Below, in pieces: positions 727 through 29,296 of a stretch of 64,000 nt of DNA. The DNA lies in the NCBI GenBank assembly GCA_020849795.1, contig JADZFR010000051.1:83821-147820 (forward strand). The letters are read 5' to 3'. How positions within the stretch are numbered: position 1 is the stretch's first letter; the number at the start of each line of letters is the position of its first letter. The notes below the pieces were generated by a model that had not been told where the DNA came from, did no database searches, and saw only the letters and a program-made list of their open reading frames with translations. The stretch is from Planctomycetota bacterium. Its GTDB lineage: Bacteria > Planctomycetota > UBA8742 > UBA2392. The translations under genes were made by a program, and so were the position numbers.

Positions 727-3700
727 ATGCGCACAACTCTGGTTCTTCTGATCCTGTTTGCGGCATCGCTTCAGGCACAGGACTCAAACGCCGCCTGGAG
801 CTTCAGTGGACAGGGCGACACGTTTCAAAGCACCGGCAAGTTCGGGCAGGCCCACGAGGCGTACATCCAGGGCATCAGGATCGCGCAAGCGGGCGAGAAC
901 CGCTTTGCCGAGGGCTACATCCTGCTTGCGCTGGCCGGGCTGCATGACCGGACGGACTACGCCCAGGCCTGTCGAGCGCTCGTGCCCGAACTCCTTGAGC
1001 GGGCAATCGATCTGCTGGCCAGGGCGAGCTCGTACTGGCACGCACTGCGCGGCTGCCAGATGCTTACGCACCATCTGAAATCACTGGAACGCAAGCCTGA
1101 CGCAACGCAAATGGCCGACATTGCGATGGCGGCCGTCATCGCCGACGTGAACCAGGTCTTGGCCCAGGCCACGCTGCATAACCCTGAATACGCATCAGCC
1201 CTTCCGGATGTGCATCGCGAATGGATGCTCGCCCGGCTCTCGTTGCGCTCAGGCGCGACCGTGGCTGGCGCCGATCGCGCCGTCGCGGCGATTGAGGTCA
1301 TGGACAAAGCCGCATTGAAGCACTCCGCCCTGCAGGCCCGGTTGTGGCTCGCCCATGAACTGTTGGCACCGGCCCATGAGGCCAACGGCGCCGCGCGGGT
1401 GGTCACGCTGGCAACCGCAGCCGCAGAGTCGGCAGCGGCCCTTGGTTGCCGAGACGCCGAGTACCGGGCATGGGCACTGGTCGCACGGATGCACAGCGAC
1501 GCCACCAAGGCCGTTGCGGCTGCACGCGCATCACTGATGGCCGGACGCAATCTTGATCCGGACCCTGCGATTGAGGCGCTGGCGGTGCTTGCACGTTCCG
1601 CCCCTGAGTCGGAGCGCGCTGCCTGGCAGAACGAGTACCTCGACACCACATTGCGGCAGGCCCGCGACTGTCACTATGACCTGCTTCAAGCCATTGAAAA
1701 CGGAAACTTCTCGTACGTGCCCACTGCCGTACTGGCCAAGTTGCGACGGCACAGCCGACAATTGCCTGCACTGGTACCACACCTCAAAGTAATGGAGCGC
1801 CTGGAGCGTCGCTTGTCCGAGGCGCAGCCTCAACCCACGGCTGCACAGCGGGCCGAATTCAGAAAGCGCTTCGTGAACGCAGTCAGCGAGAAAGTCGCCC
1901 TGGGCGCGGCGGCCACCATGGCCGAGTTGGGCGGACGCGACGAGGTGATGGACCTGCTGATGGATAACCTGGAATCCAGTGATCCATTGGTCGAGTGCGC
2001 GATGGCTGTGCAGTCCACGGCGCGCGCCGAGCATATGCCGCGCCTGCTGAAACTTGCAGGGTCCAAGACCACTTTTGTCGCCGTGGCGGCCACCACGGCG
2101 ATCTTTCGACTGGTGCATGAGGGCGCACGGCCGAACCTTGCTGACCTGTTGAAGTCGCAAGAGATGGCAGGCGTGCCCCGCGCGTATCTGCTTGGCGCGC
2201 TGGCGCTGTCCGGCGACGAAGCGGGCATTGCAGGCCTGCGCGCGCTGGCTGCGGCTTCGACAGATGCGGAAGTCGCCGCCACCGCGTACTTTGTGTTGGC
2301 AACGCTGGGCGATGTTGCCGCGGGCGCAGAACTGGGCCGACGGATGCCAATTGCCAAAAACCAGGAATTCTATGCGGTCAACTTGGGGCGTGGCGGCGCG
2401 ATGCATGCGCGCGGCATGTTCTACGCCCTGAAGCATGACGAGATCACCGGTGCGCGCGCCAAGTGGCTTCATCGCCAGTGGCGCGGCCAGGACCGCAACA
2501 GCCGCGGCTGGCACCTGATGTACGCCACCCCGCGCGACCGCCGCGATACAAACGCGCTGCATGGACTTGATCACCTGCAGTGGCTTCGCGACACCGAAAA
2601 GGGCGCATGGGGAGACGTGCTCGAGTGGCTGATCCAGCACCTGGTGAACGATTTTCCGGAATGGTTCGCCGACCATCCGCACCTGCCGGCCGAACAGCCG
2701 GGGCCGCTCAAGGGCCTGGGCGAATCAGAACTGGACAAACCTGAAAGCGCTATCAAGCCCAGCGCCGACGGCATCTGGCTCATGTACGCAATCGGCACCG
2801 ACAAGGGCTACCTGTCCCTGAACAAGAAGCTGCACGACACGACACTTGCCGACAACACGCTGACGGTGACACTGGCAGACAACGGCCGCCGCATTCAGTT
2901 CAAAGCCGACGAGAGCTTCATCCGCACCGTGGCGGCTGCGCTGGATAAGATGTACGACTCGGCAACCCTGCATCTGCCGGGGCGCGAACCGCTGCCGATG
3001 ACCATTCACTTCAAGGGCTACTCGTGGGCCGACGTTGAAAAGCCCAACACCATCGGCGAAGTCACGCGCGTTGCCAACCCCGAGCGCTGGCGGAACCCCG
3101 AATACGACGGCCATGTCAAACTGGTGGTCGCCCTGCCCGAACCTGACGAGGGCATGGGCAACACCATTTCGCTGGAAGAACTCGCGAAGGCCGAAGTGGT
3201 TGTAAACATCAAGCTGCTCGACCGTACCGGCACGATGCGCTTCAAGTTGTCAGCGTTGCGGGAATCGTTGGCCGAGTTGCCGGACCTGGCGGTGACATCA
3301 TTTGAGATCAACCCCGCCTCGGCCAAGCCGAACCAGATGCTGATCGTGACGGTCAACGCGACCAACCTCGGGCGCAGCGTCACCAAGGCCGGCAATTGCC
3401 TTGTGCGCTTCTACGTCAAGAACCCGCAGTACGGCGACGGCTTTCGCGTGCTCGCTGAGCAGAAGTTTGAAGCGGTAGGCTGGCGGCACGGTGAATCCAG
3501 GTATTTCACGTTGCTGCCCGTGGTCGGCGCCGAGCACTTCTTGAACCGTTACAGCCACACCTTCGTGCCCGAAGCCGGTGACACCCAGCTGATGGTGATG
3601 ATTGACCCGTTCGACCAGTGCAAGGAGTCAGACAAAGAGAACAACAAGTCAGGCAGGCTCTTGAACTGGGAAGTCCAGGGCGAAGAAGCGACCAAGTTGG

Positions 3701-11460: not shown

Positions 11461-12555
11461 CTAGACGTACACTTGTGCGCGGCGGGCACTCATCTGATGC
11501 GCGAGCTTGATTGCCTCATGCATCGCGCCGGGGTTGGCTTTGCCCTGGCCCGCGATGTCGAATGCGGTGCCGTGGTCGGGACTGGTGCGCACGATCGGCA
11601 GGCCCAGTGTCACGTTCACGCCCTCAAAGAACGCCAGCGTCTTTACCGGAATCAATCCCTGGTCGTGGTACATCGCAACCACGGCGTCGTAACGACCTTC
11701 CCGGGCGTGTGCGAACACGCTGTCGGCTGCGAGCGGACCTTCCAGCTTCCAGCCCTTCTTTCGCAGGTCGTCCACGAGCGGCTTGATCAGCTTGCGGTCT
11801 TCATCGCCGAAGCGGCCGTTTTCGCCGGCGTGCGGGTTCAAGCCGCAGACCGCAATGCGCGGGGCTTCAATCGCGAAGTCGCTGATCATCGCCGCATGCA
11901 CCGTCTCAAGCACGCCGCGCAGCAGCTTGCGTGTAATCAGCTTGGGCACCCGGCTCAGGGGTTCATGAATCGTGGCCAGCGCGACTTTCAGACCGCCGCC
12001 CACCAGCATCATTACCGCATGCTTGGCCTTGCACACGTGCGCGAACAATTCGGTCTGGCCCGGAAATGGAAACTCGTCCTCGTCCATCACTTCCTTGCAG
12101 ATCGGCGCGGTGACGACGGCATCGCTGATGTCGCCGGCCAGCATTTCTGTGGCCGCCGCCAGGTAGCTGCCCGCGCGCTCGCCCGTGGCGCCCGTCGGCT
12201 TGCCGGGCTTGACCGCGCGCTCGTCTTTGAAGCCGCAATCCAGAAAGATCGGCCGCCACGGTTTGTCGCCCGCTGGCTCAATGTGCTCAAGCATGTAGCC
12301 CGGGTCACTGATGAAATCGTCCACCGGAATGATGTGGTAAGCGTGCATCGACGAAGGCTTGGACAGGTGGCGCGCGTACAGGAAGGCGTCGCCAATCACG
12401 GCAAGCGGCCGCTGGTGCAGAACCTCGTGTCGCTTCTGCAATCGGCGCACGGCGCGGTGCGTCACTTCTGCGCCGACGCCCGCGGGGTCACCCATGGTGA
12501 TCAGCAGCGGCATGGGAAAGTCCCATGCCTCAAACTCTCCGCTGTCATCGTTCAA
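11461..12555 (-). CDS. pdxA: 4-hydroxythreonine-4-phosphate dehydrogenase PdxA
   Basis: 'ITMGDPAGVGAEV', 'VCGLNPHAGENG', 'YHDQGLIPVK' and 'PDHGTAFDIAG' are PdxA hallmarks. The start codon overlaps the upstream stop in an ATGA arrangement. Confidence 0.85.
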   Translation of the reverse strand: MNDDSGEFEAWDFPMPLLITMGDPAGVGAEVTHRAVRRLQKRHEVLHQRPLAVIGDAFLYARHLSKPSSMHAYHIIPVDDFISDPGYMLEHIEPAGDKPWRPIFLDCGFKDERAVKPGKPTGATGERAGSYLAAATEMLAGDISDAVVTAPICKEVMDEDEFPFPGQTELFAHVCKAKHAVMMLVGGGLKVALATIHEPLSRVPKLITRKLLRGVLETVHAAMISDFAIEAPRIAVCGLNPHAGENGRFGDEDRKLIKPLVDDLRKKGWKLEGPLAADSVFAHAREGRYDAVVAMYHDQGLIPVKTLAFFEGVNVTLGLPIVRTSPDHGTAFDIAGQGKANPGAMHEAIKLAHQMSARRAQVYV

Positions 12556-15088
12556 CTGCGTCTCCGCACCAGGCGCTCAAGCGGCATCAGGATAAGGAAC
12601 AGCGCGCACAGGTACACAGCCCCCATCGGCCAATCTCGCCGCGTGAGACGTGTCTCTGGCAGCTTCGAGGAAAGCTCTGCCTGCTTCGGGTTGTCGTCCA
12701 CTGGTTTCGTGAATCCTCCGCCCGAGCCCTTGATGGCCACATAGACGTCGCCCATGCGGCGCTGCTCATCTTCGACTTGCTCGATCAACTCTGCGGCACC
12801 AGTCGGGAGCCCGCCCGCATGCGTCAGCAGACCGTCAGTCAGCTCAAGCGCAAGGTCGCCCGACGCGGTTCGCAGAAAGTAGGTGGCACCCGGCAGCGGG
12901 TCCAGCAGCCGAATCCCCTCTGGTGTTGCTTCGCCTACCAGCCGCACATCCGGCACTTCGCGCGGCAGCAGCCAGCGCAGACTTGCGGCAAACACGCCGG
13001 GAAAGTCGCCCCAAGCCGTGATCTCGCCCAATGATTCTGGCTCGCCCCCTACCGACCAGAAGGCCGTGCGCCCGAGCCCGTACGCTTGAAACGCCAGCGC
13101 CGGCGGGTCGTGCGCCGCATTCAGGCCCAGCGGGACGGCGGCTTCCGGCTTGGCAATGCTGCGCGCATACCAGGCTGCGCGAGGCGCGGGCTTAGGCAGC
13201 GCATCCGGCCCGAAGAGCTGTTTGCCGGGCGCCAGCAGCGTAAGTGGAAACTCGCCGGCGAGGACATCGACCTTGGGTGGCTCCAGCTCGGCGGCCTTCT
13301 GTTCGTCGAGCTTGCGTTTGCGTTCTTCTTCTTCGGCTTTCTTCTGGTCGTCGTAGGCCTTGAACGCCGTTTCCACGGCGGTCACGAAGATCACGTGGGC
13401 CTTTTCCGCCGCTTCGCCTTCGCCGGGAATGAACGAAAAGCCCTGCTTGGTGGCCAGGTCCTCTATGGTCTTGCGGGCCGCAAGTACTTCGGGTGTGGCG
13501 CCCACGAAAGCATCGCCGATGCCGACGGTCATGATGTTCACGGTTTCGCGGCGCGCCTCTTCGGCGATGTTCGACAGCAGCTTGCCTTCGCGCGCGTTGG
13601 CGGGGCGGTCGGCGCCATCGGTCATCAGCACGATCACCTTCACGGCGCTCTTTTCTTTCTTGATCACGTCCAGCGCTTCGCGCATCGCGGCGTACACGTC
13701 GGTGTTGTAGTACATCTCGTCGTAGTCGGCGTCGCCCTCGGTCGCGGCCAGGCGTTGCGCCAGGTTCTTCACGTCGAAGTCAATGAACACCCGCGGCTTG
13801 TCAATCCACGTCTGCTTCAGTGTAAATGACAGCACGCCGACGCGCGTGTTGGTCTGCTCTTTGGCTTCCTTGATCTTCTTCAGCGCCTCCGTCACGCCTT
13901 TGCACGCGACGCGCCAGCGTGTCAGGTCGGCGCGGCGATTGACCGTGGCGTTCATGCTGCCTGAGCGGTCCAGCACGTAAACTATGCTGGCCTTGGCGAC
14001 TTCGGCCTTGCCCTTGATCTCTTCGACCGGTGGGTCTTCGGGTTCGGGCGGCTTGCCTTCCTTGAGCAGCGTGACGGGCAAGAGCATCCTGGCCTCGGGC
14101 GCAAGATACTCCGGCGCCACGAATTTTGCGCCGTCGCCCGTAACATACAGTCCACCGCCGCGCGCGACCCAGAATGACAGGCCATAAATCACTGACGGAT
14201 TCGACAGCGACAACTGGTACAGGGCATCGACACTGGTCAACACTACGCCGACCGGGCTTTCCGCGTTGTCGAACCGGCTTGCGTCGAAACCTGTGAGTTC
14301 GCCCCGTTCGGTCTTCCAGCCGGGCGCCAGAGCACTCACGCGCTTCTCTTGATCGTTACTCAGGCCCAGCATCAACAACAACGGCAGTTCGCCCACACGC
14401 ACAATGGCGCCGTCGCGCTGCAGCACGTTGCCTTGCGCGTCGTGCAACACGGCTTCCAGCAGGTGCACGCCCGGTTTTTCCAGCCGGATTTCCGCCTTGC
14501 CGGACTTGTGCGGCAACTCCGCGCCATCCAGCAGCACCTTCAGGGTTGCGCCCGCGAGAAACGCCGAAACGCTGACCTGTCCGGCTTCTGCCGGTTGCAA
14601 GGTTGTGGGCGCGTCGATGTGAAGAATCATCGGCGCCGGCAGCACGTTTGCTTCGGGCCAGTGCGCCGTGCATGGCAGACCCAACGCGAGTACCGCGTCG
14701 CGGGCGCGGGTGGCTTGCTCGTGCGTGCCCCATATCTCGGCACGCGTTGGCGGTTGCTCGCCGGCAAGCGCCTGGCGCACGCGGTTTGTGAAGGCAAGGG
14801 GCGTCTCGCGAAAGTCGCTGGCGTCGGCGGCGGGGGCGCGATCATCCAGCAGCAGGCGCCACACACCTTGCGGTTCAAAGCGGATCGTTTCGGGTTGCGT
14901 TTCAACAAATCCGGCGAGTGCTAACACCAGCACCGCGACGGCGACCACACGAATCAAGCCCGCAAGAGCCACCGCGCCTTTGGCATGGCGCCAGGGCAGC
15001 AGCAACACCAGCAAGCCAACAACTGCGCTGATGCCAACCCACGGCAGTGTGGCGGGATGTGCAATCTGCAGACTCGATAGATCGGGCA
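12552..15088 (-). CDS. BatA-like membrane protein with an N-terminal double-transmembrane segment, a central vWA (MIDAS) domain and a C-terminal TM helix.
   Basis: The start at the Met in 'MPDLSSLQ' (15088) avoids the antisense overlap with asnS. Two N-terminal hydrophobic helices are 'VGISAVVGLLVLLL' and 'VVAVAVLVLALAG'. The MIDAS motif is 'YVLDRSGSMN' with 'LMTDGAD' downstream. The C-terminus 'AVYLCALFLILMPL' is hydrophobic. The track ORF to 15995 is an overextension. Confidence 0.65.
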
Positions 15089-15152
15089 TCCAGCGCTTCC
15101 CGTTGTGCGCGCCAAACCTTGCATGCATAGTGCCCCCGCAGAGGGCGGACAC

Positions 15153-16502
15153 ATGACCGTTACGGTACGAACACTGAAGGACTCCGTCGACCACGAGGTC
15201 GAGCTCAAGGGCTGGATGTACAACCGGCGCGGCAGCGGAAAGCTGCTGTTCCTGCAGGTGCGTGACGGCACCGGCATTGTGCAGGTAGTCGTCAACAAGA
15301 AGGACGTGCCTGAGCCGGTGTTTGAAACCGCCAAGCGCATCGGCATTGAAAGCAGCATTGTCGTCCGCGGGCGAGTCACGAAAGATGATCGCTCGGCCCT
15401 GGGCGTAGAACTGCAATGCAGCGACCTGTCGGTGATCCAGGAAGTTCACGACTACCCGATCCAGATCACCGAAGACGTGCCAAACATCGACAAGCTGCTC
15501 GACAAGCGCCACCTCTGGATTCGTTCGCGGGTGCCCAACGCAATTCTGCGCGTGCGCAGCGAAGTGGTGCAGGCGATTCGCGACTTTTACTACCAGCGCG
15601 GCTACGTGCTGTTCGATGCGCCGATGTTCACGCCTGCGAGCTGCGAAGGTTCCAGCACTCTGTTTGAAGTGCCGTACTTTGACGCCACCGCTTACCTGTC
15701 GCAAAGCGGCCAACTGTACGGCGAAGCGGGCGCGCTGGCGTTTGGCAAAGTCGTCGTTTTCGGCCCGACGTTTCGTGCTGAGAAATCCAAGACCCGGCGC
15801 CACCTGACCGAGTTCTGGATGGTCGAGCCCGAAGTTGCGTTTCTTGAACTGGACGGCGTCATGGACCTGGCAGAGCAGCAGATCCAGTACGTTGTTGGAC
15901 GTGCCCTGGAACGCTGCGCTGAAGAACTGAAGGTGCTTGAGCGCGACACCGCCATCCTGCAGCAGGTCAGCAAGCCGTTCCCGCGCATCAGCCACGCCGA
16001 GGCGCAGGGTGTCCTGACCAGGTTGAAAGCCGAGTTCGCTGCCAGCGGCAACGAAGAACTTCAGAAGTTAAGCAATGACATTCTCAAGAGCGGCCCCGAC
16101 GCCGACCTGGGCGCCGCGGACGAAACCGCCATCGGCATGCACTTCAAGCAGTGCGTGATGATCCATCGCTACCCGCGCCACGTGAAAGCCTTCTACATGA
16201 AGGGCGACCCGGCGGACCCCACCAAGGCCCTGTGCGTGGACGTCATTGCGCCCGAGGGCGTGGGCGAGATTGTGGGCGGCAGCCAGCGCGAAGACAGCCT
16301 GGAAGAGTTGCTGAAGCAGATTGAGCACCACAAGGTCCCCATGGAAAGTGTCGAGTGGTTTGTAGACCTGCGGCGTTATGGCAGCGTCCCCCACGGCGGC
16401 TTCGGCATGGGCGTTGAGCGCTGCGTGCAGTGGATCACCGGTTGCCAGCACGTGCGCGAAACCATCCCGTTCCCGCGCACCATCTATCGCCTGAACCCTT
16501 AG
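15153..16502 (+). CDS. asnS: asparaginyl-tRNA synthetase (class IIb)
   Basis: Class II motif 2/3 'FGPTFRAEKSKTRRHLTEFWMVEPEVAF'. The C-terminus 'GEIVGGSQREDSLEEL...WFVDLRRYGSVPHGGFGMGVERCVQWITG...IPFPRT' is closer to AsnRS than to archaeal-type AspRS. Confidence 0.8.
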   Translation: MTVTVRTLKDSVDHEVELKGWMYNRRGSGKLLFLQVRDGTGIVQVVVNKKDVPEPVFETAKRIGIESSIVVRGRVTKDDRSALGVELQCSDLSVIQEVHDYPIQITEDVPNIDKLLDKRHLWIRSRVPNAILRVRSEVVQAIRDFYYQRGYVLFDAPMFTPASCEGSSTLFEVPYFDATAYLSQSGQLYGEAGALAFGKVVVFGPTFRAEKSKTRRHLTEFWMVEPEVAFLELDGVMDLAEQQIQYVVGRALERCAEELKVLERDTAILQQVSKPFPRISHAEAQGVLTRLKAEFAASGNEELQKLSNDILKSGPDADLGAADETAIGMHFKQCVMIHRYPRHVKAFYMKGDPADPTKALCVDVIAPEGVGEIVGGSQREDSLEELLKQIEHHKVPMESVEWFVDLRRYGSVPHGGFGMGVERCVQWITGCQHVRETIPFPRTIYRLNP

Positions 16503-22621: not shown

Positions 22622-23383
22622 TTGAACTTTCACGTCCGGGTTGCCCGGGGGTTTGTCTTGCGTTACGCGATTTTTGGCGACATCCACGGCAACCTCGAGG
22701 CTCTCGAGAAGGTGCTCAGTCTCTGCAAAGACCAGGGAGTTGATCGCTACTTGTGCCTGGGCGACATCGTCGGATACGGCGCAAACCCGGACGAGTGCTG
22801 TGACCGCGTGCGTGAGATGGGCTGTCCAACCGTCGCCGGCAACCATGACTGGGCCGTGTGCGGCAAACTCAGCATCGAGTTCTTCAACACCTACGCCAAG
22901 CAGGCTGTGTACTGGACCCGCGACAACCTCAAAGAAGCGAACATGCAGTTCCTGCGCGAGCTGCCGCTGGTGCAGGAGATTGACGAGAACATCACGCTTG
23001 TCCACGGCAGCCTGAACTTCCCTGACCTGTTCGACTACATCCAGACCAGCCAGGACGCGCGCCTGAGCCTTGAGAAGCTGCGCACGCGTGTATGCTTCCT
23101 CGGCCACAGCCATGTACCCGTTACGTTCTTTTCGGGGCCCATGGTCAGCTACTCGATGAGCTACGAGATTAACCTCAAGGGCTTCGAAAAGGCGCTGGTA
23201 AATGTCGGCAGCGTGGGACAACCGCGCGACGAAAACCCCAAGAGCTGCTTTGCGATTTACGACAGCGACAAAGAACTCGTGAAGATCACGCGCATCGAGT
23301 ACGACATCGAGACCGCCGGCCGCAAGATCCTCGATGCCGGCCTGCCCGAAATCCTGGCCGAACGCCTGAAGTTCGGGCGCTAG
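22622..23383 (+). CDS. calcineurin-like metallophosphoesterase
   Basis: 'YAIFGDIHGN', 'CLGDIVGYG' and 'AGNHDWA' are phosphoesterase motifs I-III. The true start may be the TTG near 22659. Confidence 0.7.
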   Translation: MNFHVRVARGFVLRYAIFGDIHGNLEALEKVLSLCKDQGVDRYLCLGDIVGYGANPDECCDRVREMGCPTVAGNHDWAVCGKLSIEFFNTYAKQAVYWTRDNLKEANMQFLRELPLVQEIDENITLVHGSLNFPDLFDYIQTSQDARLSLEKLRTRVCFLGHSHVPVTFFSGPMVSYSMSYEINLKGFEKALVNVGSVGQPRDENPKSCFAIYDSDKELVKITRIEYDIETAGRKILDAGLPEILAERLKFGR

Positions 23384-23442
23384 CTGACGCGCGAGTCTCG
23401 CCCGGGCAAGCTGTTTCGGCTCTTTTCCGCTGACCGGCGTCT

Positions 23443-23874
23443 TTATTCAAAGTGCCGGTCGTAGGTCTCCAGAAGCTCTCTGACACTCGCCAGCGCCTTT
23501 TCCGCGGCGGCAACGTCGGCAGCCTTGGCCAGGCTGTCCACCGCCGGCATCAAGCGACCCAGGAAGACGTGCAGCTGGTCATGGGCTGCGCCGGTCATGG
23601 TGCAGCCGCGGATCAGTTCGTCGAGTTCCTTCTGCAGTCGTGAGCCCAGCGCTCTTGCCGCCTCAACTGTACTGGCGTCAGCGGACGAGATAGCATCGCG
23701 CATCCGGGCCGCGCTCGCGCGCGTGTGATCGTCGGCCTGCCACTTGCGACCATCGTCCAGCCGCAGGCCGCCTTGCGCCGCGTTCGCAGGGCCGTGGTCA
23801 TGGTTACCTGGACAACCCGCCAGCATGACGCCGAGGGAGAGCAAGAGGGCGATCAGCCCGGTTCGAACGTACAT
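23443..23874 (-). CDS. small lipoprotein (143 aa), function unknown
   Basis: The signal and lipobox 'MLAGCPGN' are followed by a His-rich start 'HDHG'. The mature part is helical and Ala-rich. It lies downstream of and on the same strand as the MoxR gene. Confidence 0.5.
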   Translation of the reverse strand: MYVRTGLIALLLSLGVMLAGCPGNHDHGPANAAQGGLRLDDGRKWQADDHTRASAARMRDAISSADASTVEAARALGSRLQKELDELIRGCTMTGAAHDQLHVFLGRLMPAVDSLAKAADVAAAEKALASVRELLETYDRHFE

Positions 23875-23983
23875 GGCCTGCTCCTTATTCAGATCAGTCT
23901 ATCCGAATAAGAACACACGAGGCTGGCAAATTAGTCCAAGTTGTACGAGGGTTCGTTCGCGACCCGCGACGCTGACACAGGCC

Positions 23984-25087
23984 TTACTCGGCAAACGCTT
24001 TCCTGGCCCTTTCGCCGAGCAGCCACTTCCGTATGCCGCCCAGCCAGTTCTTGCGCTGGCGCACTTCTTCGTGCTGGGTGTCCCATGCCGGCCTTGGCAC
24101 CTGTTTGATCAGGTCGCGCACGAGGTCGCGACTGGTCACGCTGTCGGCTTCAGCGTGGAAGTTGGTCAGTACCCGGTGATGCAGCGCCGGCAGCGCGATT
24201 GCACGAATGTCTTCGGGGTACGCCTCGTCGCGGCCATCGAGGGCGGCCCGCGCCTTGGCGCCCAGGATCAGCGACTGCGTGGCGCGCGGGCTGCCGCCGC
24301 AGTCAACCATGTCCTTGACCAGTGCGCTGAACGTGCTTGCCGGGCGCGTGGAGCGCACGACGTCAATCGCGTACTTGATGCACTCGTCGCGCATGTTGAT
24401 GCGCCGCACCACGTCAAGCATGCGCACTACTTTCTGTGCGCTCAACACCGTGTTCACGGCCTGCTCGGGTCGCGACGTGGTCTGCAAAAGCATCTCCATC
24501 TCGTCGTACTGGGTCGGGTAATCTACCAGCACCGTGAACATGAAGCGGTCCAGCGCCGCCGCAGGCAGAAGGTACGTGCCTTCCTGTTCAATCGGGTTCT
24601 GCGTAGCCATCACGAAGTACGGCTGCGGCAGGTCGTAGCGGTGGCCGGCGACCGTGACGGCATACTCTTCCATGGCTTCCAGCAGCGCGGCCTGCGTCTT
24701 GGGCGGCGTGCGGTTGATTTCGTCGGCGAGCACAAAGTTGGCAAAGATCGGCCCGCCAAGAAACTGAAAGGCGCGTTCGTCGCCATCGCCGACCAGCACG
24801 TCGCTGCCGGTGATGTCGCTGGGCATCAGGTCCGGCGTGAACTGAATGCGGTTGAACTTCATGCCCATGATCTGGGCCAGCGTGCGTATCAGCAGCGTCT
24901 TGGCCAAGCCGGGCACGCCCAGCAGCAGTACGTGTCCGCCGGCGAAGAATGCCGTAAGCACCTGCTCAACGACTTCGTCCTGGCCGACAATGCGTTTGGC
25001 CAGTTCATGGCGAATCGCCGCATGGGCATCGCCCAGCTCTTTGAGTACACGATAGTCGTCGCCCGATAGGGCCGGTTGTTCCTGCAT
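23984..25087 (-). CDS. MoxR-family AAA+ ATPase
   Basis: Walker A 'GVPGLAKT', Walker B 'VLADEINR', the sensor region and the 'VGQDEVVEQV' N-terminus are typical of MoxR/RavA-like ATPases. The start is at 'MQEQPALSGDDYR'. The 1019-aa track ORF is an antisense overextension. Confidence 0.85.
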   Translation of the reverse strand: MQEQPALSGDDYRVLKELGDAHAAIRHELAKRIVGQDEVVEQVLTAFFAGGHVLLLGVPGLAKTLLIRTLAQIMGMKFNRIQFTPDLMPSDITGSDVLVGDGDERAFQFLGGPIFANFVLADEINRTPPKTQAALLEAMEEYAVTVAGHRYDLPQPYFVMATQNPIEQEGTYLLPAAALDRFMFTVLVDYPTQYDEMEMLLQTTSRPEQAVNTVLSAQKVVRMLDVVRRINMRDECIKYAIDVVRSTRPASTFSALVKDMVDCGGSPRATQSLILGAKARAALDGRDEAYPEDIRAIALPALHHRVLTNFHAEADSVTSRDLVRDLIKQVPRPAWDTQHEEVRQRKNWLGGIRKWLLGERARKAFAE

Positions 25088-25402
25088 GCGGGCCTCATTA
25101 TGGAAACGAAGTGCGCCACGTAAAGCGGAACCAATTCGGGCCACAGCGCATGCCCGAGTGAACCAACAGCCGCCCCGTCCGTTTTCACGTGGTGAACCAG
25201 TCTGTCCTTGCAGCATTCGCCCCGTTCGGCACGGGACTTGGTGCATTCCCCGTGGGCCGGTTGGAAGACGCTGAAACTGTGTTTCGGATACCCGGAATGC
25301 ACGCTTCTGGCAGTTTTCTGTTACCGCCCGGTAGCGCTGGCGATTGCAGGATGTCGGAATAGACTGGTCAATCCCTGCTTTGTCGGTGCCCGGAGGAGTC
25401 AT

Positions 25403-27100
25403 ATGCGCACACACACTGCCCGGCTTCGCGCGCTTTCGATCACGCTGCCCCTGCTCCTGCTCACGGTGTTCGCGCTGCTGCTGGCAAGCCCAGCCGCGCC
25501 CGTGCACGCCCAGGAAGAGTTCAAGACGCTCAAGAAAGACTATGAAACGGCGCGCAAAGACGGCTCGCGTACGCAAATGGGCCGCATCGCAGCCAAGATG
25601 GGCGACACCAACGACCCCGACGCCGCCAAATTCCTGCTGAAGGAGTTGGACGAAGACCAGAAGGCCCGCGCCAGAAAGAAGGCCGGCCTGCCGGGCGAAG
25701 TTCGCGACGAAATCATCAAGGCGCTGGCCAAGTTCACCGACGAGAAGAGCGTTGAGATGATCGGCAATGCCTGCCTGGCCCTGAAGTCGGACAAAGACGC
25801 GTCGCTGGCCCTGGACCAATTCGACTTTTTCATGGCGCTGGCAAGCATGAAGAACAGCCCGCCCGCTGAAAAGGCAGTACGCGCGGCAATCGCCGACGCA
25901 AAGAATGCGTTCATCAAAGTGGCTGCGATTGAAGCTGTGCGCCAGGCCAAGGCCAAGCAGTACACCCAGGACGTGGCAAACGTGCTGGCCGAAGAAAACG
26001 AAGCCTGGCACAAAACCTGGCTGATCGTGCCGATCAACGTGTTCGCCTGCCTGCAGGAACTGGTTGAGCCCGAAGAAAAGGAAATGGCGATCAAGGTAGT
26101 TGAGGCCACGATCGCCTGGCAGGAACGCACCACCTGTGCCGACGAGCGCGTGCGCTTCTTCGGCGGCAACATGCTCTGGAAGCTGACGGGCGAAGAAGCC
26201 GACATGTCCAGCACCTTCTATTGGAAGTGGTGGGTGCAGCAGATGAAGACCGTGGGCAACGTCGACGCCAAAAACAAGCCTGAGGCCAAGCGCAGCAAGA
26301 CCGTGGCCAGCCCGCCGGTGTTTGATACCCAGCCTGTCGGAAAGCGTTTTGTGTTCGTGATCGACGTGTCGGACAGCATGAAGCTGCCGCTGAAGATCAC
26401 GCTTGAGGAAATCGAGAAGCGCAAGAAGGACCGCGGACCGATCTCGGGCCGACGCAAGAAAGACAAAGAAGCCGAGGAAGGCAAAGAGCCCGAAGACAAC
26501 AACCCGCTGCGCAAGCTGCCCTGGGAAGACATCGGCACCAAGATGGACCTTGCCCGCGAAGAGCTTTCGCGCTCGATCAAGGACTTCGCCGGCGACCGTT
26601 ACTTCGCCGTGATCATCTACAGCACCGGTCACACGCTTTACACCGAGGGCTGGATCAAGGCCACGCAAGAGAACTGCAACAAGTGGTCGCGCAACGTTCA
26701 GGAATTGACCACCGACGCCATGACCAACATCCACGGCTCGTTGATGCGCGCCTTCCGCATGGGCGCAAAGGGCGACACCGAGACGGAACACCCGGCTGTG
26801 GAAGCCGACTGCATCCTCAACGGCGCCGACTGCATCGTCTTCCTGACCGACGGCTGGGCAAGCTGGGATGACCAGAGCCAGGGCCGCACAAAAGACAAGC
26901 GTAACAACGTGGACAACAGCGTCGGCGACGGGCCGTTCATCTACGGCGAAGACATCTGGCCCGACGTTCTTCGCCACAACATTTTCCGCAAAGTCATCAT
27001 CAACACCGTCGGCATTGGCAATCACGACAAAGACCTGCTTCAAAATCTGGCCAAGCGTACCGGCGGCGTGTACGTCGACTGGGGCTTCCCCGAAAGTTAG
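25403..27100 (+). CDS. Secreted HEAT/ARM-like repeat protein with a C-terminal vWA (MIDAS) domain; paralog 1.
   Basis: GGAGGAG Shine-Dalgarno sequence, then signal peptide 'MRTHTARLRALSITLPLLLLTVFALLLASPAAPVHA'. The N-terminal half is helical repeats. The MIDAS motif is '[12 protein letters not shown]', with 'FLTDGW' downstream. A conserved family tail is '[14 protein letters not shown]...GGVYVDW'. Confidence 0.7.
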   Translation: MRTHTARLRALSITLPLLLLTVFALLLASPAAPVHAQEEFKTLKKDYETARKDGSRTQMGRIAAKMGDTNDPDAAKFLLKELDEDQKARARKKAGLPGEVRDEIIKALAKFTDEKSVEMIGNACLALKSDKDASLALDQFDFFMALASMKNSPPAEKAVRAAIADAKNAFIKVAAIEAVRQAKAKQYTQDVANVLAEENEAWHKTWLIVPINVFACLQELVEPEEKEMAIKVVEATIAWQERTTCADERVRFFGGNMLWKLTGEEADMSSTFYWKWWVQQMKTVGNVDAKNKPEAKRSKTVASPPVFDTQPVGKRFVFVIDVSDSMKLPLKITLEEIEKRKKDRGPISGRRKKDKEAEEGKEPEDNNPLRKLPWEDIGTKMDLAREELSRSIKDFAGDRYFAVIIYSTGHTLYTEGWIKATQENCNKWSRNVQELTTDAMTNIHGSLMRAFRMGAKGDTETEHPAVEADCILNGADCIVFLTDGWASWDDQSQGRTKDKRNNVDNSVGDGPFIYGEDIWPDVLRHNIFRKVIINTVGIGNHDKDLLQNLAKRTGGVYVDWGFPES

Positions 27101-27135
27101 GCCGCGTCCCCTCGTGGCATAGACAGGACAACTCC

Positions 27136-28548
27136 ATGCCTCGAATCATCAGCCTGCTGTCGGCGGTTGCAGCCTTGCTGTGCACCGTTGCCGTCGTCAG
27201 TTTCAGCGCGCAGGCGCCGCGCGGCGCCAACCCCCACGCGATCAACGACGTAGACCGCGGGCGCGCCTTCGACCACTTTGACCGCCTGCTGCCGCTGGCC
27301 CTGGACAGTGCCAGCGAAGCCGCTGCCAAACAGGTCCGCGACGCACTGACCGAGGGCAAGTCGCCGTGGCTCACGATCGCCGCGGTCGAGGCTGTCCGGC
27401 AGGCCGAAGTGGACAAACCCGGCACCGGCAAGGTCTTTCTGCCCGAAGTGCTGGCGCTGATGGGCGAAAAGCACGCCAAGCTGCACGAAGAAGAGATCGT
27501 ACTTGTCAACGTGATGGCGTGCCTGGGCACACTGGTGAAGGCCGACGACAAGGACAATGTCACCGCCGTCGTACAGGCGCTCGTAGACTGGCAGAAGCGC
27601 ACCAAGAACGAAATTGTGCGCCTGCGCCACATGGCCGAGCGCGTGCTGTTCGCGCTGACCGCCGAAGACTGCACGCTGCGCGAAGACACCGTCGCGTTCT
27701 GGGAATGGTGGCTGAAAAACCAGGCCGCCAAGGTCGAAGAAAAGGACCCGAAGGCACCTGAGAAAAAGAGCAAGACGGCCCCGGTGGTCTTTCGTGAACC
27801 GATTGTGGGAACGCGCATTGTGTTCGTGATTGACGTGTCAGACAGCATGAAATGGAAGATCGACCCTGAGGACGTACCCAAGCTCAAGGCCAAAGCCCCC
27901 CACCTGCCTTGGGACAAAGAGCGTGAGCCGACGGCGCTGTGGCTTGCCACCCAGGAACTTGCGCACTCGATCACGCAACTCAAGCCGGAAGACCCCAAGA
28001 AAGGCGGAGGCAAAGGCACGAAGCGCCCCAAGAACGACCCCGAGCTGCGTTACTTCGCGATCGTCACCTATTCCAAGGACGTCAAACTGGTTACTGACGG
28101 CTGGGTCGAAGCCAGCGAGAAGAACTGCCGTGTCTGGTCCGATCATGCCCGCGACCTGGAAACGGAAACCTTGACCAACATCCACGGTGGCTTGATGCAG
28201 GCATTCGGGCTGTCTGCGGCGCGAACCAACACCAGCAGCCCCGAGCTTGACCGCGACTGCGTGTTGACCGGCGCGCACACCATCGTGTTCCTGACCGACG
28301 GCTACCCGACCTGGAGCGAGGACAGCACCGACATGTCCGGCACCAACGAGTTCAAGCACGCCGTCGGCAACGGCGAGTTCGTAAAGCGCGACAAGCTGAT
28401 CGAGTTGGCGGTGCGGACCAACCGCTTTCGAAAGGTGATGATCAACACCGTCGGCATCGGCAATCACGACAAGGCGCTGATGAAGGCCTTTGCCAAGAAC
28501 GCCGGCGGCGCCTACACCGACTGGTTCTGCAACATCCTGTGGAAGTAG
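27136..28548 (+). CDS. Secreted HEAT-like repeat plus vWA protein; paralog 2, in tandem with paralog 1.
   Basis: Signal peptide '[27 protein letters not shown]'. The shared blocks with paralog 1 are '[10 protein letters not shown]', 'WEWWLKNQ', '[13 protein letters not shown]', '[11 protein letters not shown]', '[10 protein letters not shown]' and '[15 protein letters not shown]...GGAYTDW'. Confidence 0.7.
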
Positions 28549-28561
28549 CCTGGGCTTGCAC

Positions 28562-28598
28562 GCGTCGGCACCCCCGGGGGTGCCGACGCTTGTTTGCC
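28562..28598 (+). terminator. intrinsic terminator
   Basis: Perfect palindrome CGTCGGCACCCCC/GGGGGTGCCGACG at 28563-28588, followed by CTTGTTTG. Confidence 0.55.
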
Positions 28599-28624
28599 AG
28601 CCGGCTTGGCGCTATCCATTTGCC

Positions 28625-29296
28625 ATGAAACCTGCCGTGGTACTCGTTTCGGGGGGCCTGGATTCCGCGACTGTGCTCGCGATCGCGCAGCAGTCCTTTG
28701 ACTGCCAACCGTTGACGTTTGACTACGGCCAGCGCCATGCCATTGAGCTGCAAGCTGCCCAGCGTGTTTGCGCCCAATTGGGTGCGCGCGCGCCGCGCCT
28801 GGTTAAGCTTGACTTGCGAGACATCGGCGGCAGCGCGCTCACGGCCGACATTGACGTCCCCAAGGGCGGCCCCGGTGACGGCATACCCGTCACTTACGTG
28901 CCCGCCCGGAATACACTGTTCCTGAGCTATGCCCTGGCGCTGGCGGAAACCCTGGGCGCGACCGACATGTTCATCGGCGTCAATGCCGTGGATTACTCAG
29001 GCTACCCGGACTGCCGCCCCGAGTTCATTCACGCGTTTGAGTCACTTGCCAACCTCGCCACCAAGCTCGGCGTTGAGGGTGCCCGGTTTCGCGTTCATGC
29101 GCCGCTGCTGGCGCTGACGAAGGCCGATATCATTCGGCGGGGCGTGGCGCTGGGTGTAGATTATAGCCTTACCCACTCATGCTACGACCCTGTGGACGAC
29201 CGCGCCTGCGGACACTGCGACTCATGCGTGATTCGGCGCCAGGGCTTCTTGATGGCGGCAATTCCCGACCCGACCCGGTACGTTCATCGGCCCTAG
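28625..29296 (+). CDS. queC: 7-cyano-7-deazaguanine synthase QueC
   Basis: PP-loop '[12 protein letters not shown]', '[10 protein letters not shown]' and the C-terminal Zn site '[19 protein letters not shown]'. The track ORF starts earlier at 28490, in non-protein-like sequence. Confidence 0.9.

Follow-up and report, generated by a model that had tools for sequence, protein, structure and literature searches.

The locus analysed here raises the question of whether a MoxR ATPase acts together with the two exported proteins encoded next to it, or lies beside them because gene order has been inherited. In the window, that is the whole stretch of 64,000 nucleotides of a Planctomycetota bacterium, the MoxR gene (23984–25087, minus strand, 367 aa) is separated by a divergent intergenic region of 315 bp (25088–25402) from gene A (25403–27100, plus strand, 565 aa), which is followed after a gap of 35 bp by gene B (27136–28548, plus strand, 470 aa). 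This layout agrees in all its coordinates with the initial annotation, which also took A and B for tandem paralogs; they are indeed paralogous, with 36% identity over ~460 aa (E 1e-84). Orthologs of A are 45–98% identical.

Export and domain architecture of A and B

The A product is composed of a signal peptide (approximately residues 1–36, VHA/Q), a helical domain (residues 33–283), a Trp block (WKWWV) and a vWA domain (residues 315–560). The corresponding parts of B are a signal peptide (approximately residues 1–26), a helical domain (38–197), the Trp block WEWWL and a vWA domain (227–463). The cleavable signal peptides proposed initially are predicted here by inspection, as signal-peptide-like hydrophobic N-termini with a basic n-region and A-x-A type ends occur in both proteins and in 38/38 relatives inspected. 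No twin-arginine motif was found in the signal peptides of A, B and their orthologs (RLRAL, FRWTL, YRWSL), which makes Sec the most likely export route, with the proteins crossing unfolded. This bears on a model in which MoxR would be a cytoplasmic pre-export chaperone of the A and B precursors. Although the genes are close together and a passage in PMC4810496 reports M. tuberculosis MoxR1 with RipA, a Tat-exported protein, the Sec-type signal peptides and the export of family members that have no MoxR neighbour make this model very improbable.

The HEAT/ARM-like nature of the N-terminal region is supported by a match of the family profile to alphaRep/HEAT structures (E 1e-11), by the detection of the Pfam domain HEAT_2 in 35/55 distant relatives, and by AF2 models that are all-alpha over residues 33–283 of A and 38–197 of B. 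These two-domain models are of high confidence (for A, pLDDT 87.6 and pTM 0.85). On the A and B proteins of the window themselves the Pfam matches are sub-threshold, both for HEAT (19.3 bits vs 27.7) and for vWA (20.8 and 18.3 bits vs 27). The N-terminal domain thus resembles PBS-lyase-type HEAT-like proteins (Pfam HEAT_2/HEAT_PBS; alphaRep designs) in matching alphaRep/HEAT profiles, but its repeats are degenerate and end in the family-specific Trp block. That block (W189, W191 and W192 in B numbering) and the near-identical VGIGNHDK...GG.Y.DW tail of the two proteins, both pointed out in the initial annotation, are conserved in the family.

The MIDAS of A is formed by the DVSDS motif (D321, S323, S325; 26363–26377, plus strand) together with T441 and D483, and that of B by D233, S235, S237, T347 and D388. 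The DxSxS...T...D signature is fully or almost fully conserved in sets of 30, 55 and 19 sequences: in the 55 distant relatives D321, S325 and T441 (A numbering) are invariant while S323 and D483 are nearly so (at least 90%), and all five residues are invariant in two other comparisons. The vWA fold and this conservation bear out an intact MIDAS in both proteins. A Lys/Glu-rich insertion after the MIDAS serines had been described for both proteins, but it is long and disordered in A only (residues 343–364; 26429–26494, plus strand), where it links the MIDAS loop to helix alpha1, has a pLDDT <50 and varies in length among orthologs; at this position B carries a shorter, ordered insertion, and in B another basic insertion follows helix alpha1. 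Compared with extracellular integrin-like vWA domains (ITIH1/ITIH4 heavy chains, the LapA and Mfa5 adhesins, pilus-tip adhesins), to which identity is 16–23%, A and B lack a VIT domain and a sortase, pilin or RTX context, and the partner of their vWA domain is a HEAT-like solenoid.

A profile search yielded 2,559 cluster representatives at E<=1e-10 and 5,906 at E<=1e-3, with HEAT_2 and VWA_3 Pfam domains in most of the family. All named relatives are hypothetical proteins of Planctomycetota MAGs, under the source names 'hypothetical', 'VWA domain-containing' or 'HEAT repeat domain-containing'. Pfam and NCBIfam give sub-threshold domain matches only and hold no curated family for the whole HEAT-vWA architecture, as expected from the earlier proposal that it falls outside named families. 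A and B are not orphans but the paralogs, in one lineage, of a large HEAT plus vWA family that occurs in uncultured Planctomycetota and is uncharacterised.

Upstream elements and the probable A-B transcription unit

Alignments of 10 and 16 orthologous intergenic regions reveal that MoxR and A each have conserved blocks of their own. On the MoxR side, the block ATTATGGAAACG (25097–25108, minus strand) lies just upstream of the start codon, contains a -10-like CATAAT and is part of a promoter-like site (25124–25097); its columns are invariant or nearly invariant in 10 loci, and it is absent upstream of A in locus L017, in which MoxR is not a neighbour. On the A side, a sigma-54-like -24/-12 element (CGGCACG-N4-TTGGT, 25227–25242, plus strand) faces A; its -12 'GC' is non-canonical, it occurs once in the window, and its GGC...TTG.T positions are invariant in 16 loci, L017 included. 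A palindrome, GTTACC-N4-GGTAGC (25320–25335, plus strand), is located ~70 nt 5' of the A start codon and is a candidate operator: it has 1 match in the window vs 0.01 expected, 20 A-ortholog loci, again including L017, each have a single copy of it at the equivalent position, and the third-paralog loci have none. Finally, a Shine-Dalgarno-like GGAGGA (25392–25397, plus strand) precedes the ATG of A by 5 nt, and GAGGAG is conserved in the alignments. Overall, the cis-elements upstream of A are conserved in 16–20 loci and are retained where MoxR has been lost from the neighbourhood. At the other end, a strong intrinsic-terminator-like hairpin (28562–28589, plus strand; 12-bp stem, 10 G-C pairs) directly 3' of B would close a two-gene A-B transcription unit before queC, the gene downstream.

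The MoxR protein and its adjacency to gene A

The assignment of MoxR to the MRP-type AAA+ ATPases is firm: it has Walker A (GVPGLAKT) and Walker B (VLADE) motifs, matches Pfam AAA_3 (E 6.5e-59) and AAA_lid_2 (E 1.3e-17), and its nearest solved structure is C. hutchinsonii MoxR, 2r44 (E 1e-70 over residues 27–330). Beyond the 2r44 match, a C-terminal tail (approximately residues 331–367; 23984–24097, minus strand) contains the basic amphipathic segment NWLGGIRKWLLGERARK. Comparison of tails and linkers shows that in sister lineages the position of this tail runs on into an RDD transmembrane domain, and at least 11 MoxR ortholog clusters of 529–567 aa carry PF06271 RDD. These features point to a genuine AAA+ chaperone that is probably membrane-associated. 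The small lipoprotein noticed near MoxR is present as an ORF (23443–23874, lipobox LAGC); it is found in this genome only, being absent from all related loci, even those with a MoxR 97–98% identical, and it is hence not part of a conserved module.

An extracytoplasmic vWA protein encoded beside MoxR had been presented as unusual, but this arrangement is known. Bat/MRP operons are marked by a MoxR gene with a tandem pair of MIDAS vWA genes beside it, whose vWA domains are likewise extracytoplasmic; in Bat-like MoxR operons, BB0172 resides in the outer membrane and BB0173 exposes its vWA domain to the periplasm (PMC5700661). Such operons include Bacteroides batI-A-B-C-D-E, Borrelia bb0170-bb0176 and their Rhizobium and Leptospira equivalents. 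A MIDAS-bearing vWA protein is also encoded beside a MoxR-class AAA+ gene, as here, in the case of the cytoplasmic MoxR partners NorD, CbbO, ViaA and CoxE. The locus could accordingly be viewed as a reduced Bat-like system, an envelope-maintenance or stress module in which the amphipathic tail of MoxR (in sister lineages, its RDD domain) would keep it at the inner membrane face and the HEAT solenoids, fused to the two periplasmic vWA paralogs, would stand in for the Bat TPR proteins. The conservation of the MoxR tail and the MoxR-RDD fusions of the clade are in its favour. However, no DUF58 gene, BatA N-terminal domain, TM anchors or TPR genes are found within ~10 kb; separate SH3 proteins are missing too, and A and B differ from Bat proteins by their N-terminally fused HEAT-like solenoid and cleavable-looking signal peptide. 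In addition, MoxR is divergent from A and B and not co-transcribed with them.

Synteny also bears on this Bat-like model. MoxR and A are adjacent in 22/24 orthologous loci, where the MoxR orthologs are 72–98% identical, and the adjacency lasts at 45–47% A identity despite broken downstream synteny (L015, L029, L031), an observation that speaks for a link between the two genes. Nevertheless, unrelated neighbour pairs are kept as often (MPE-MoxR 19/19, QueC-acidic 19/19, A-QueC 20/23), and coupling is therefore unsupported beyond block synteny. In L016 and L017 MoxR and A are no longer adjacent, yet the cis-elements of A are retained, and toxin-antitoxin genes sit between MoxR and A in some genomes. 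The association is confined to one clade. MoxR is present at 0/11 third-paralog genome loci and at 1 of ~66 distant-relative metagenome loci, and the nearest MoxR relatives outside the clade (53–60% identity) have no vWA or DUF58 neighbours. The conservation of the adjacency, on which the initial annotation made its proposal depend, gives a mixed picture: it holds within one clade, but no better than for unrelated housekeeping neighbours. A coupling of A and B to MoxR, in expression as that annotation had proposed or in function, is unsupported. We consider the Bat-like model unlikely, but serious enough to be kept in mind. MoxR is a conserved neighbour of A, and that the three genes form a functional module is a candidate reading; the link looks like inherited gene order, which does not require a direct partnership.

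Possible roles of A and B outside the cytoplasm

Further information on the location of the B-type domain comes from four independent cluster representatives (P0026, P0027, P0077, P0079) in which it is fused to an ECF sigma factor through one TM helix and a Pro-rich linker, P0026 and P0027 being 52–55% identical to B. Because the domain is joined to the sigma factor via a membrane helix, it lies outside the cytoplasm. These proteins belong with the ECF sigma factors that have a membrane-spanning C-terminal extension; the neighbouring gene also encodes an ECF sigma factor, here joined to a periplasmic binding-protein domain, and the ECF-fused genes have no MoxR alongside, which also argues against the Bat-like model. 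For anti-sigma factors, a vWA domain located in the extracytoplasmic portion has a precedent in ECF289 (PMC7826278).

These Rosetta-stone fusions place the B-type domain next to a signalling role, and raise the idea that an ECF-sigma pathway uses A, B or both as its extracytoplasmic sensor. The window would then carry a 'split' version of the fused protein, and a ligand or metal bound at the MIDAS would regulate a sigma or anti-sigma partner that is membrane-bound and encoded at another site. The fusions are, however, of B type only, and the B protein of the window has 4 residues before its hydrophobic segment. Neither A nor B has a sigma or anti-sigma domain, and no ECF sigma gene was found next to them among the ORFs read or scanned. 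Moreover, cleavage of the signal peptide would free the protein from the membrane. We regard such a split pathway as rather improbable.

In conclusion, we favour, with moderate confidence, a reading in which A and B form a two-gene operon, transcribed from A's own sigma-54-like -24/-12 box and GTTACC-N4-GGTAGC palindrome, and in which the position of MoxR beside A would follow from synteny of the entire chromosomal block in the clade. MoxR-RDD fusions, which are common in the clade and could bridge to periplasmic partners, count against this reading. Both products would be exported by Sec, each with an N-terminal HEAT-like alpha-solenoid joined to a MIDAS-competent vWA domain, and would most likely serve as metal-ion-dependent binding modules in the extracytoplasmic space. 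The cation of the MIDAS may capture an acidic residue on its ligand, a protein or a surface, while the solenoid offers a second binding surface, and the resulting role might be that of a sensor or scaffold, possibly as an A-B hetero-pair. A and B would thus represent an uncharacterised exported MIDAS family.

Tandem paralogs with a HEAT-like and a vWA domain

Genes A (25403-27100, + strand, 565 amino acids) and B (27136-28548, + strand, 470 amino acids) are separated by 35 bp and encode paralogs that are 36% identical over about 460 residues (E 1e-84). A is separated by a 315-bp intergenic region (25088-25402) from the divergent MoxR gene (23984-25087, - strand, 367 amino acids), and this geometry, described in the initial annotation, is borne out by the ORF listing and the translations. 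A G+C-rich, terminator-like hairpin of 12 bp (28562-28589, + strand) lies directly 3' of B, so that A and B look like a two-gene operon, with a transcription unit that ends before queC. In two genomes a third tandem paralog, about 40% identical to B, follows B (L007 11642-12922; L008 11624-12898), an observation which indicates that the A-B array can expand locally.

Pfam and NCBIfam scans of the window proteins returned only sub-threshold vWA and HEAT matches and no family name (VWA_3 at 20.8 bits for A and VWA_2 at 18.3 bits for B, cut-off 27; HEAT_2 at 19.3 bits for A vs a threshold of 27.7). The domains assigned in the initial annotation therefore needed independent support, which was supplied by profile, AlphaFold and conservation evidence. 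In relatives the vWA threshold is passed (e.g. VWA_3 at 45.5 bits). The N-terminal half of a 30-member family profile matches alphaRep/HEAT structures (E 1e-11), and its C-terminal half matches the vWA domains of ITIH4 (E 6.5e-9) and ITIH1 (8.2e-9). The AlphaFold models of A (pLDDT 87.6, pTM 0.85) and B (pLDDT 88.0, pTM 0.86) both have an all-alpha N-terminal domain (residues 33-283 of A and 38-197 of B), followed by an alpha/beta domain with the Rossmann-like vWA fold. In the family alignment the MIDAS residues D233, S235 and S237 (B numbering) are invariant and T347 and D388 nearly so (at least 90%), and full or nearly full conservation extends to the Trp block, which is specific to the family, and to the VGIGNHDK...DW tail. 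Two Cys, in NC.KW and DC[VI]L, form a further conserved pair. Among 55 distant relatives, which are only 21-30% identical, the MIDAS D, second S and T still show no variation, and the first S and last D vary little. The proposed two-domain organization, a probable HEAT-like domain plus vWA with an intact MIDAS, is supported by these three lines of evidence. A Lys/Glu-rich insertion had been described for both proteins; it is long and disordered only in A (residues 343-364), while the corresponding segment of B is shorter and ordered, and B has a second basic loop after helix alpha1.

A word-indexed search found 72 close relatives, whose sources are without exception 'Planctomycetes/Planctomycetota bacterium' MAGs or metagenomes; they fall into a B-type (~460 amino acids), an A-type (~560 amino acids) and a third type (~29% identity). 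An exhaustive profile search retrieved far more cluster representatives (5,906 at E<=1e-3, 2,559 at E<=1e-10 and 234 at E<=1e-30), many of which align over their full length; VWA_3 is recognized in 47 and HEAT_2 in 35 of the 55 distant members. These proteins, from Planctomycetota, currently carry names such as 'hypothetical protein', 'VWA domain-containing' or 'HEAT repeat domain-containing protein', and a full-text literature search for the combination of HEAT and vWA in Planctomycetota found no paper describing it. The HEAT-vWA architecture is common but unnamed and unstudied, and the part of the initial annotation that proposed an undescribed exported MIDAS family stands.

Predicted export of A and B, and the probable membrane association of MoxR

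A, B and all of the relatives inspected (38/38) open with a basic n-region, a hydrophobic core of 15-20 residues and an A-x-A type end. This is the only segment of its kind in each of A and B, and no such start is present in MoxR. A Tat-type signal was rejected, as none of A, B or the relatives has a twin arginine. On the basis of these sequences and of natural fusions, A and B are predicted to be exported by the Sec pathway. The fusions are four separate cluster representatives from metagenome contigs (P0026, P0027, P0077 and P0079), in each of which a single polypeptide runs from an ECF sigma factor through one transmembrane helix and a Pro-rich linker to a B-type HEAT-vWA moiety. P0026 and P0027 share 52-55% identity with B. 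As the sigma domain is cytoplasmic and a single helix follows it, the HEAT-vWA domain of the fusions should lie outside the cytoplasm. These proteins provide a topological anchor and hint at a sensing role. The neighbour of one of them is an ECF sigma factor fused to a periplasmic binding-protein domain (PBP_like_2), which suggests that in that lineage this position is used for sensor domains, and an anti-sigma factor containing a vWA domain has been described for group ECF289 (PMC7826278). Sigma-70 r2/r4 or anti-sigma domains are present in the four fusion proteins and in neither A nor B of the window, where no ECF sigma gene was identified beside the pair. Our preferred reading, which we hold with slightly better than even confidence, starts from what is shown, an A-B operon, a two-domain fold and a conserved MIDAS, and holds that the two proteins, predicted to be exported by Sec, would act as MIDAS-dependent binding or sensing proteins.

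The divergent gene is unambiguously a MoxR AAA+ ATPase of the MRP subfamily. Its start codon was set by the N-terminus conserved in orthologs (M..QPALSGDDYR); the curated Pfam thresholds are passed for AAA_3 (198 bits, cut-off 27, E 6.5e-59) and AAA_lid_2 (63.8 bits), Walker A (GVPGLAKT) and Walker B (FVLADEINR), as read in the translation, are intact, and the nearest solved structure is 2r44, the MoxR of Cytophaga hutchinsonii (E 1e-70). All MoxR orthologs of the clade share a tail past the AAA lid (23984-24097, - strand, in the window copy), part of which is basic and amphipathic (NWLGGIRKWLLGERARK). In at least 11 ortholog clusters (including P0277, P0281, P0290, P0310 and P0313) this tail continues into a multi-pass RDD-family transmembrane domain (PF06271), and two more distant MoxR relatives carry other multi-pass C-terminal domains. 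The basic amphipathic tail is all that the window MoxR keeps at the position of the RDD fusion, and tblastn detected no RDD remnant downstream of it. The conserved tail and the multi-pass extensions suggest that this MoxR subgroup is probably membrane-associated, a property that keeps alive, without establishing it, the idea of contact with envelope proteins.

Conservation and putative regulatory elements of the MoxR-A neighbourhood

The main rival reading is that MoxR, A and B make up a Bat-like functional module, and the conservation of the MoxR-A adjacency bears directly on it. We collected 28 loci from a genome scan and more from look-ups and a metagenome scan; the contexts of distant relatives came from the metagenome scan (19-sequence alignment). 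The loci of A orthologs (45-98% identity) nearly all keep one gene order, as would suit such a module: nudix, membrane protein, metallophosphoesterase, MoxR (- strand), A, B, queC, UPF0158-like acidic protein and mfd. Adjacency kept across a clade can nevertheless be mere block synteny, which is tested by scoring unrelated pairs in the same loci. The window neighbours of MoxR-A-B are ordinary housekeeping genes; those beyond the ORFs scanned with Pfam, judged by their translations and by Pfam-annotated genes at equivalent positions in related loci, resemble a Nudix hydrolase, an SDR, a pirin, QueC and Mfd. When every neighbour pair was scored in the same 27 loci, the MoxR-A pair was kept in 22/24, the phosphoesterase-MoxR pair in 19/19, the membrane protein-phosphoesterase pair in 17/17, the queC-acidic protein pair in 19/19 and the A-queC pair (within 4 kb) in 20/23. 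By this count MoxR and A have stayed together through rearrangements no better than pairs of genes that are evidently unrelated.

The block is also interrupted in several ways. The MoxR-A link is broken in loci L016 and L017, B is missing from L033 and L017, and a GNAT gene lies between A and a B-like gene in L029-L032 (a PF13302 acetyltransferase, L029 9802-10347 and L031 9816-10364, among the most divergent genomes, one of which bears the record name g_UBA2392). In four genomes a ParE-family toxin ORF (PF05016, E 2.2e-10) or a 70-amino-acid antitoxin-like ORF is inserted between MoxR and A (L008 7332-7640, L006 7752-7964, L013 8284-8496 and L035 9394-9606, all on the - strand), which lengthens the intergenic region to about 0.8-0.9 kb. 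The third paralogs (loci L018-L028, e.g. L027 2900-12713) belong to a separate conserved cluster composed of BshC, a glycosyltransferase, a methyltransferase, a CAP-domain secreted protein (399 amino acids), one or two HEAT-vWA genes and a 515-amino-acid secreted protein with no family, and none of these 11 loci has a MoxR gene within 10 kb. Among about 66 metagenome loci of distant relatives, MoxR is found near the HEAT-vWA gene in one, L096, in convergent orientation; there a vWA gene 22% identical to A (115-873, + strand) faces a MoxR gene 52% identical to that of the window (1023-2018, - strand), on a 2.2-kb contig too short to judge the arrangement. Conversely, no vWA or DUF58 gene adjoins the nearest out-of-clade MoxR relatives (53-60% identity), which are flanked by Lon, FHA/PilM or binding-protein genes. 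These pair scores, broken links and MoxR-less relatives give the proposed coupling of A-B expression to a MoxR chaperone no support beyond block synteny at the level of the clade, and make a functional module of the three proteins rather unlikely in our estimate. About 9 kb upstream, a large protein (12552-15995, - strand) has a canonical vWA domain (PF00092, E 6.5e-10, and PF13519); its gene adjoins an Asp/Asn-tRNA synthetase gene, a placement that is conserved, also in L029 and L031.

Alignment of the upstream regions of 10 and 16 orthologous loci delineated four separate conserved blocks. Block (i), ATTATGGAAACG, is found beside the MoxR start codon (within 25088-25108, - strand) and contains a -10-like CATAAT identified by promoter scan; it ends 9 nt before the start codon, which suggests that the MoxR 5' leader is very short or absent. 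Block (ii), directed towards A (25227-25242, + strand), is a sigma-54-like CGGCACG-N4-TTG(G/A/C)T (TTGGT in the window), of which GGC...TTG.T is invariant in 16 orthologous upstream regions. Its -24 half and spacing fit a sigma-54 promoter, but at -12 most genomes have GG or GA in place of the canonical 'GC', which only L033 shows (TTGCT), so we do not claim a canonical sigma-54 promoter upstream of A; a search of the window for rpoN or the gene of an enhancer-binding protein found neither. Block (iii) is a palindrome, GTTACC-N4-GGTAGC (25320-25335, + strand), which precedes the start codon of A by about 70 nt. Like block (ii) it is unique in the window, against 0.01 occurrences expected, and it recurs once, at the same position, in the loci of 20 A orthologs, L017 among them; it may be an operator for some regulator. 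Block (iv) is the A ribosome-binding site, GGAGGA. In L017, where MoxR is not a neighbour, the region upstream of A has blocks (ii) and (iii) and lacks block (i), which suggests that A carries its own cis-elements. Nothing in this arrangement points to the shared divergent promoter envisaged earlier. An Rfam search of 23300-28800 matched neither the intergenic region nor the 5' leader to a known RNA family.

Between the metallophosphoesterase gene and MoxR lies an ORF of 143 amino acids (23443-23874, - strand) with a canonical lipobox (LAGC) and several His. The small His-containing lipoprotein of the initial annotation thus exists as an ORF, and is not part of a module: it is absent from all related loci, including L001 and L002, with 97-98% identity in MoxR and about 70 bp between the phosphoesterase gene and MoxR, and it has no relatives in Pfam, NCBIfam or PDB, nor was its exact sequence found in the protein collection. 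It is an insertion seen only in this genome.

Relation to known MoxR systems and significance

Among named systems the Bat-like/MRP MoxR operon comes closest; it comprises MoxR, DUF58, two tandem vWA proteins and TPR proteins. The likeness, which favours the functional-module reading, lies in the two tandem vWA paralogs with a complete MIDAS. In contrast with that operon, no DUF58 gene was found beside MoxR by Pfam scan of the neighbouring ORFs, A and B lack the BatA N-terminal domain and transmembrane anchors, TPR genes are absent, and, instead of a co-directional operon, MoxR is divergent, in an association that does not recur beyond local synteny. For these reasons we do not class the locus as a Bat operon. 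An extracytoplasmic vWA pair beside MoxR, regarded as unusual at the outset, is not new in itself, as among the Bat-type vWA proteins of Borrelia the BB0173 domain was located experimentally in the periplasm and BB0172 on the outer membrane (PMC5700661).

Two other types of MoxR or AAA+ partnership were also rejected. The vWA proteins of the NorD/CbbO/ViaA type, proposed to plug the AAA+ pore by a beta-finger (PMC9976466), are cytoplasmic and can reach the AAA+ ring, whereas A and B, given the signal peptides throughout the family and the sigma-transmembrane fusions of B-type homologs, are predicted to be exported, and their vWA fold is closer to ITIH than to NorD. Membership of a MoxR-vWA-beta-propeller (bpMoxR) ternary conflict system is opposed by the MoxR scores (PF20030 at 47 bits vs AAA_3 at 198 bits), by the lack of a propeller or effector neighbour, and by a PADLOC search of A and B that gave no matches and hence no defence-system membership.

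A bolder proposal is that of a trans-envelope module, in which a MoxR tethered to the membrane (here by the amphipathic tail and in sister lineages by RDD) would act mechanically across the inner membrane to remodel a periplasmic sensor pair made up of the HEAT-vWA proteins A and B, a sensor that other lineages wire directly to an ECF sigma factor. We regard it as very improbable. If true, AAA+ remodelling would be coupled to the perception of signals outside the cytoplasm by way of a MIDAS, under a sigma-54-like promoter. Were MoxR simply to act with A and B, the locus would be related to the poorly understood Bat/MRP systems as a minimal form without DUF58, and would offer a simpler model of them.

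The finding as a whole is a variation on familiar parts, and its interest is modest. The MoxR-A/B case serves as a caution on 'guilt by association'. Planctomycetota genomes are full of exported proteins without known role, and this work delimits one large family among them, a HEAT-like solenoid joined to a MIDAS vWA domain, with thousands of cluster representatives, confident models and invariant residues.
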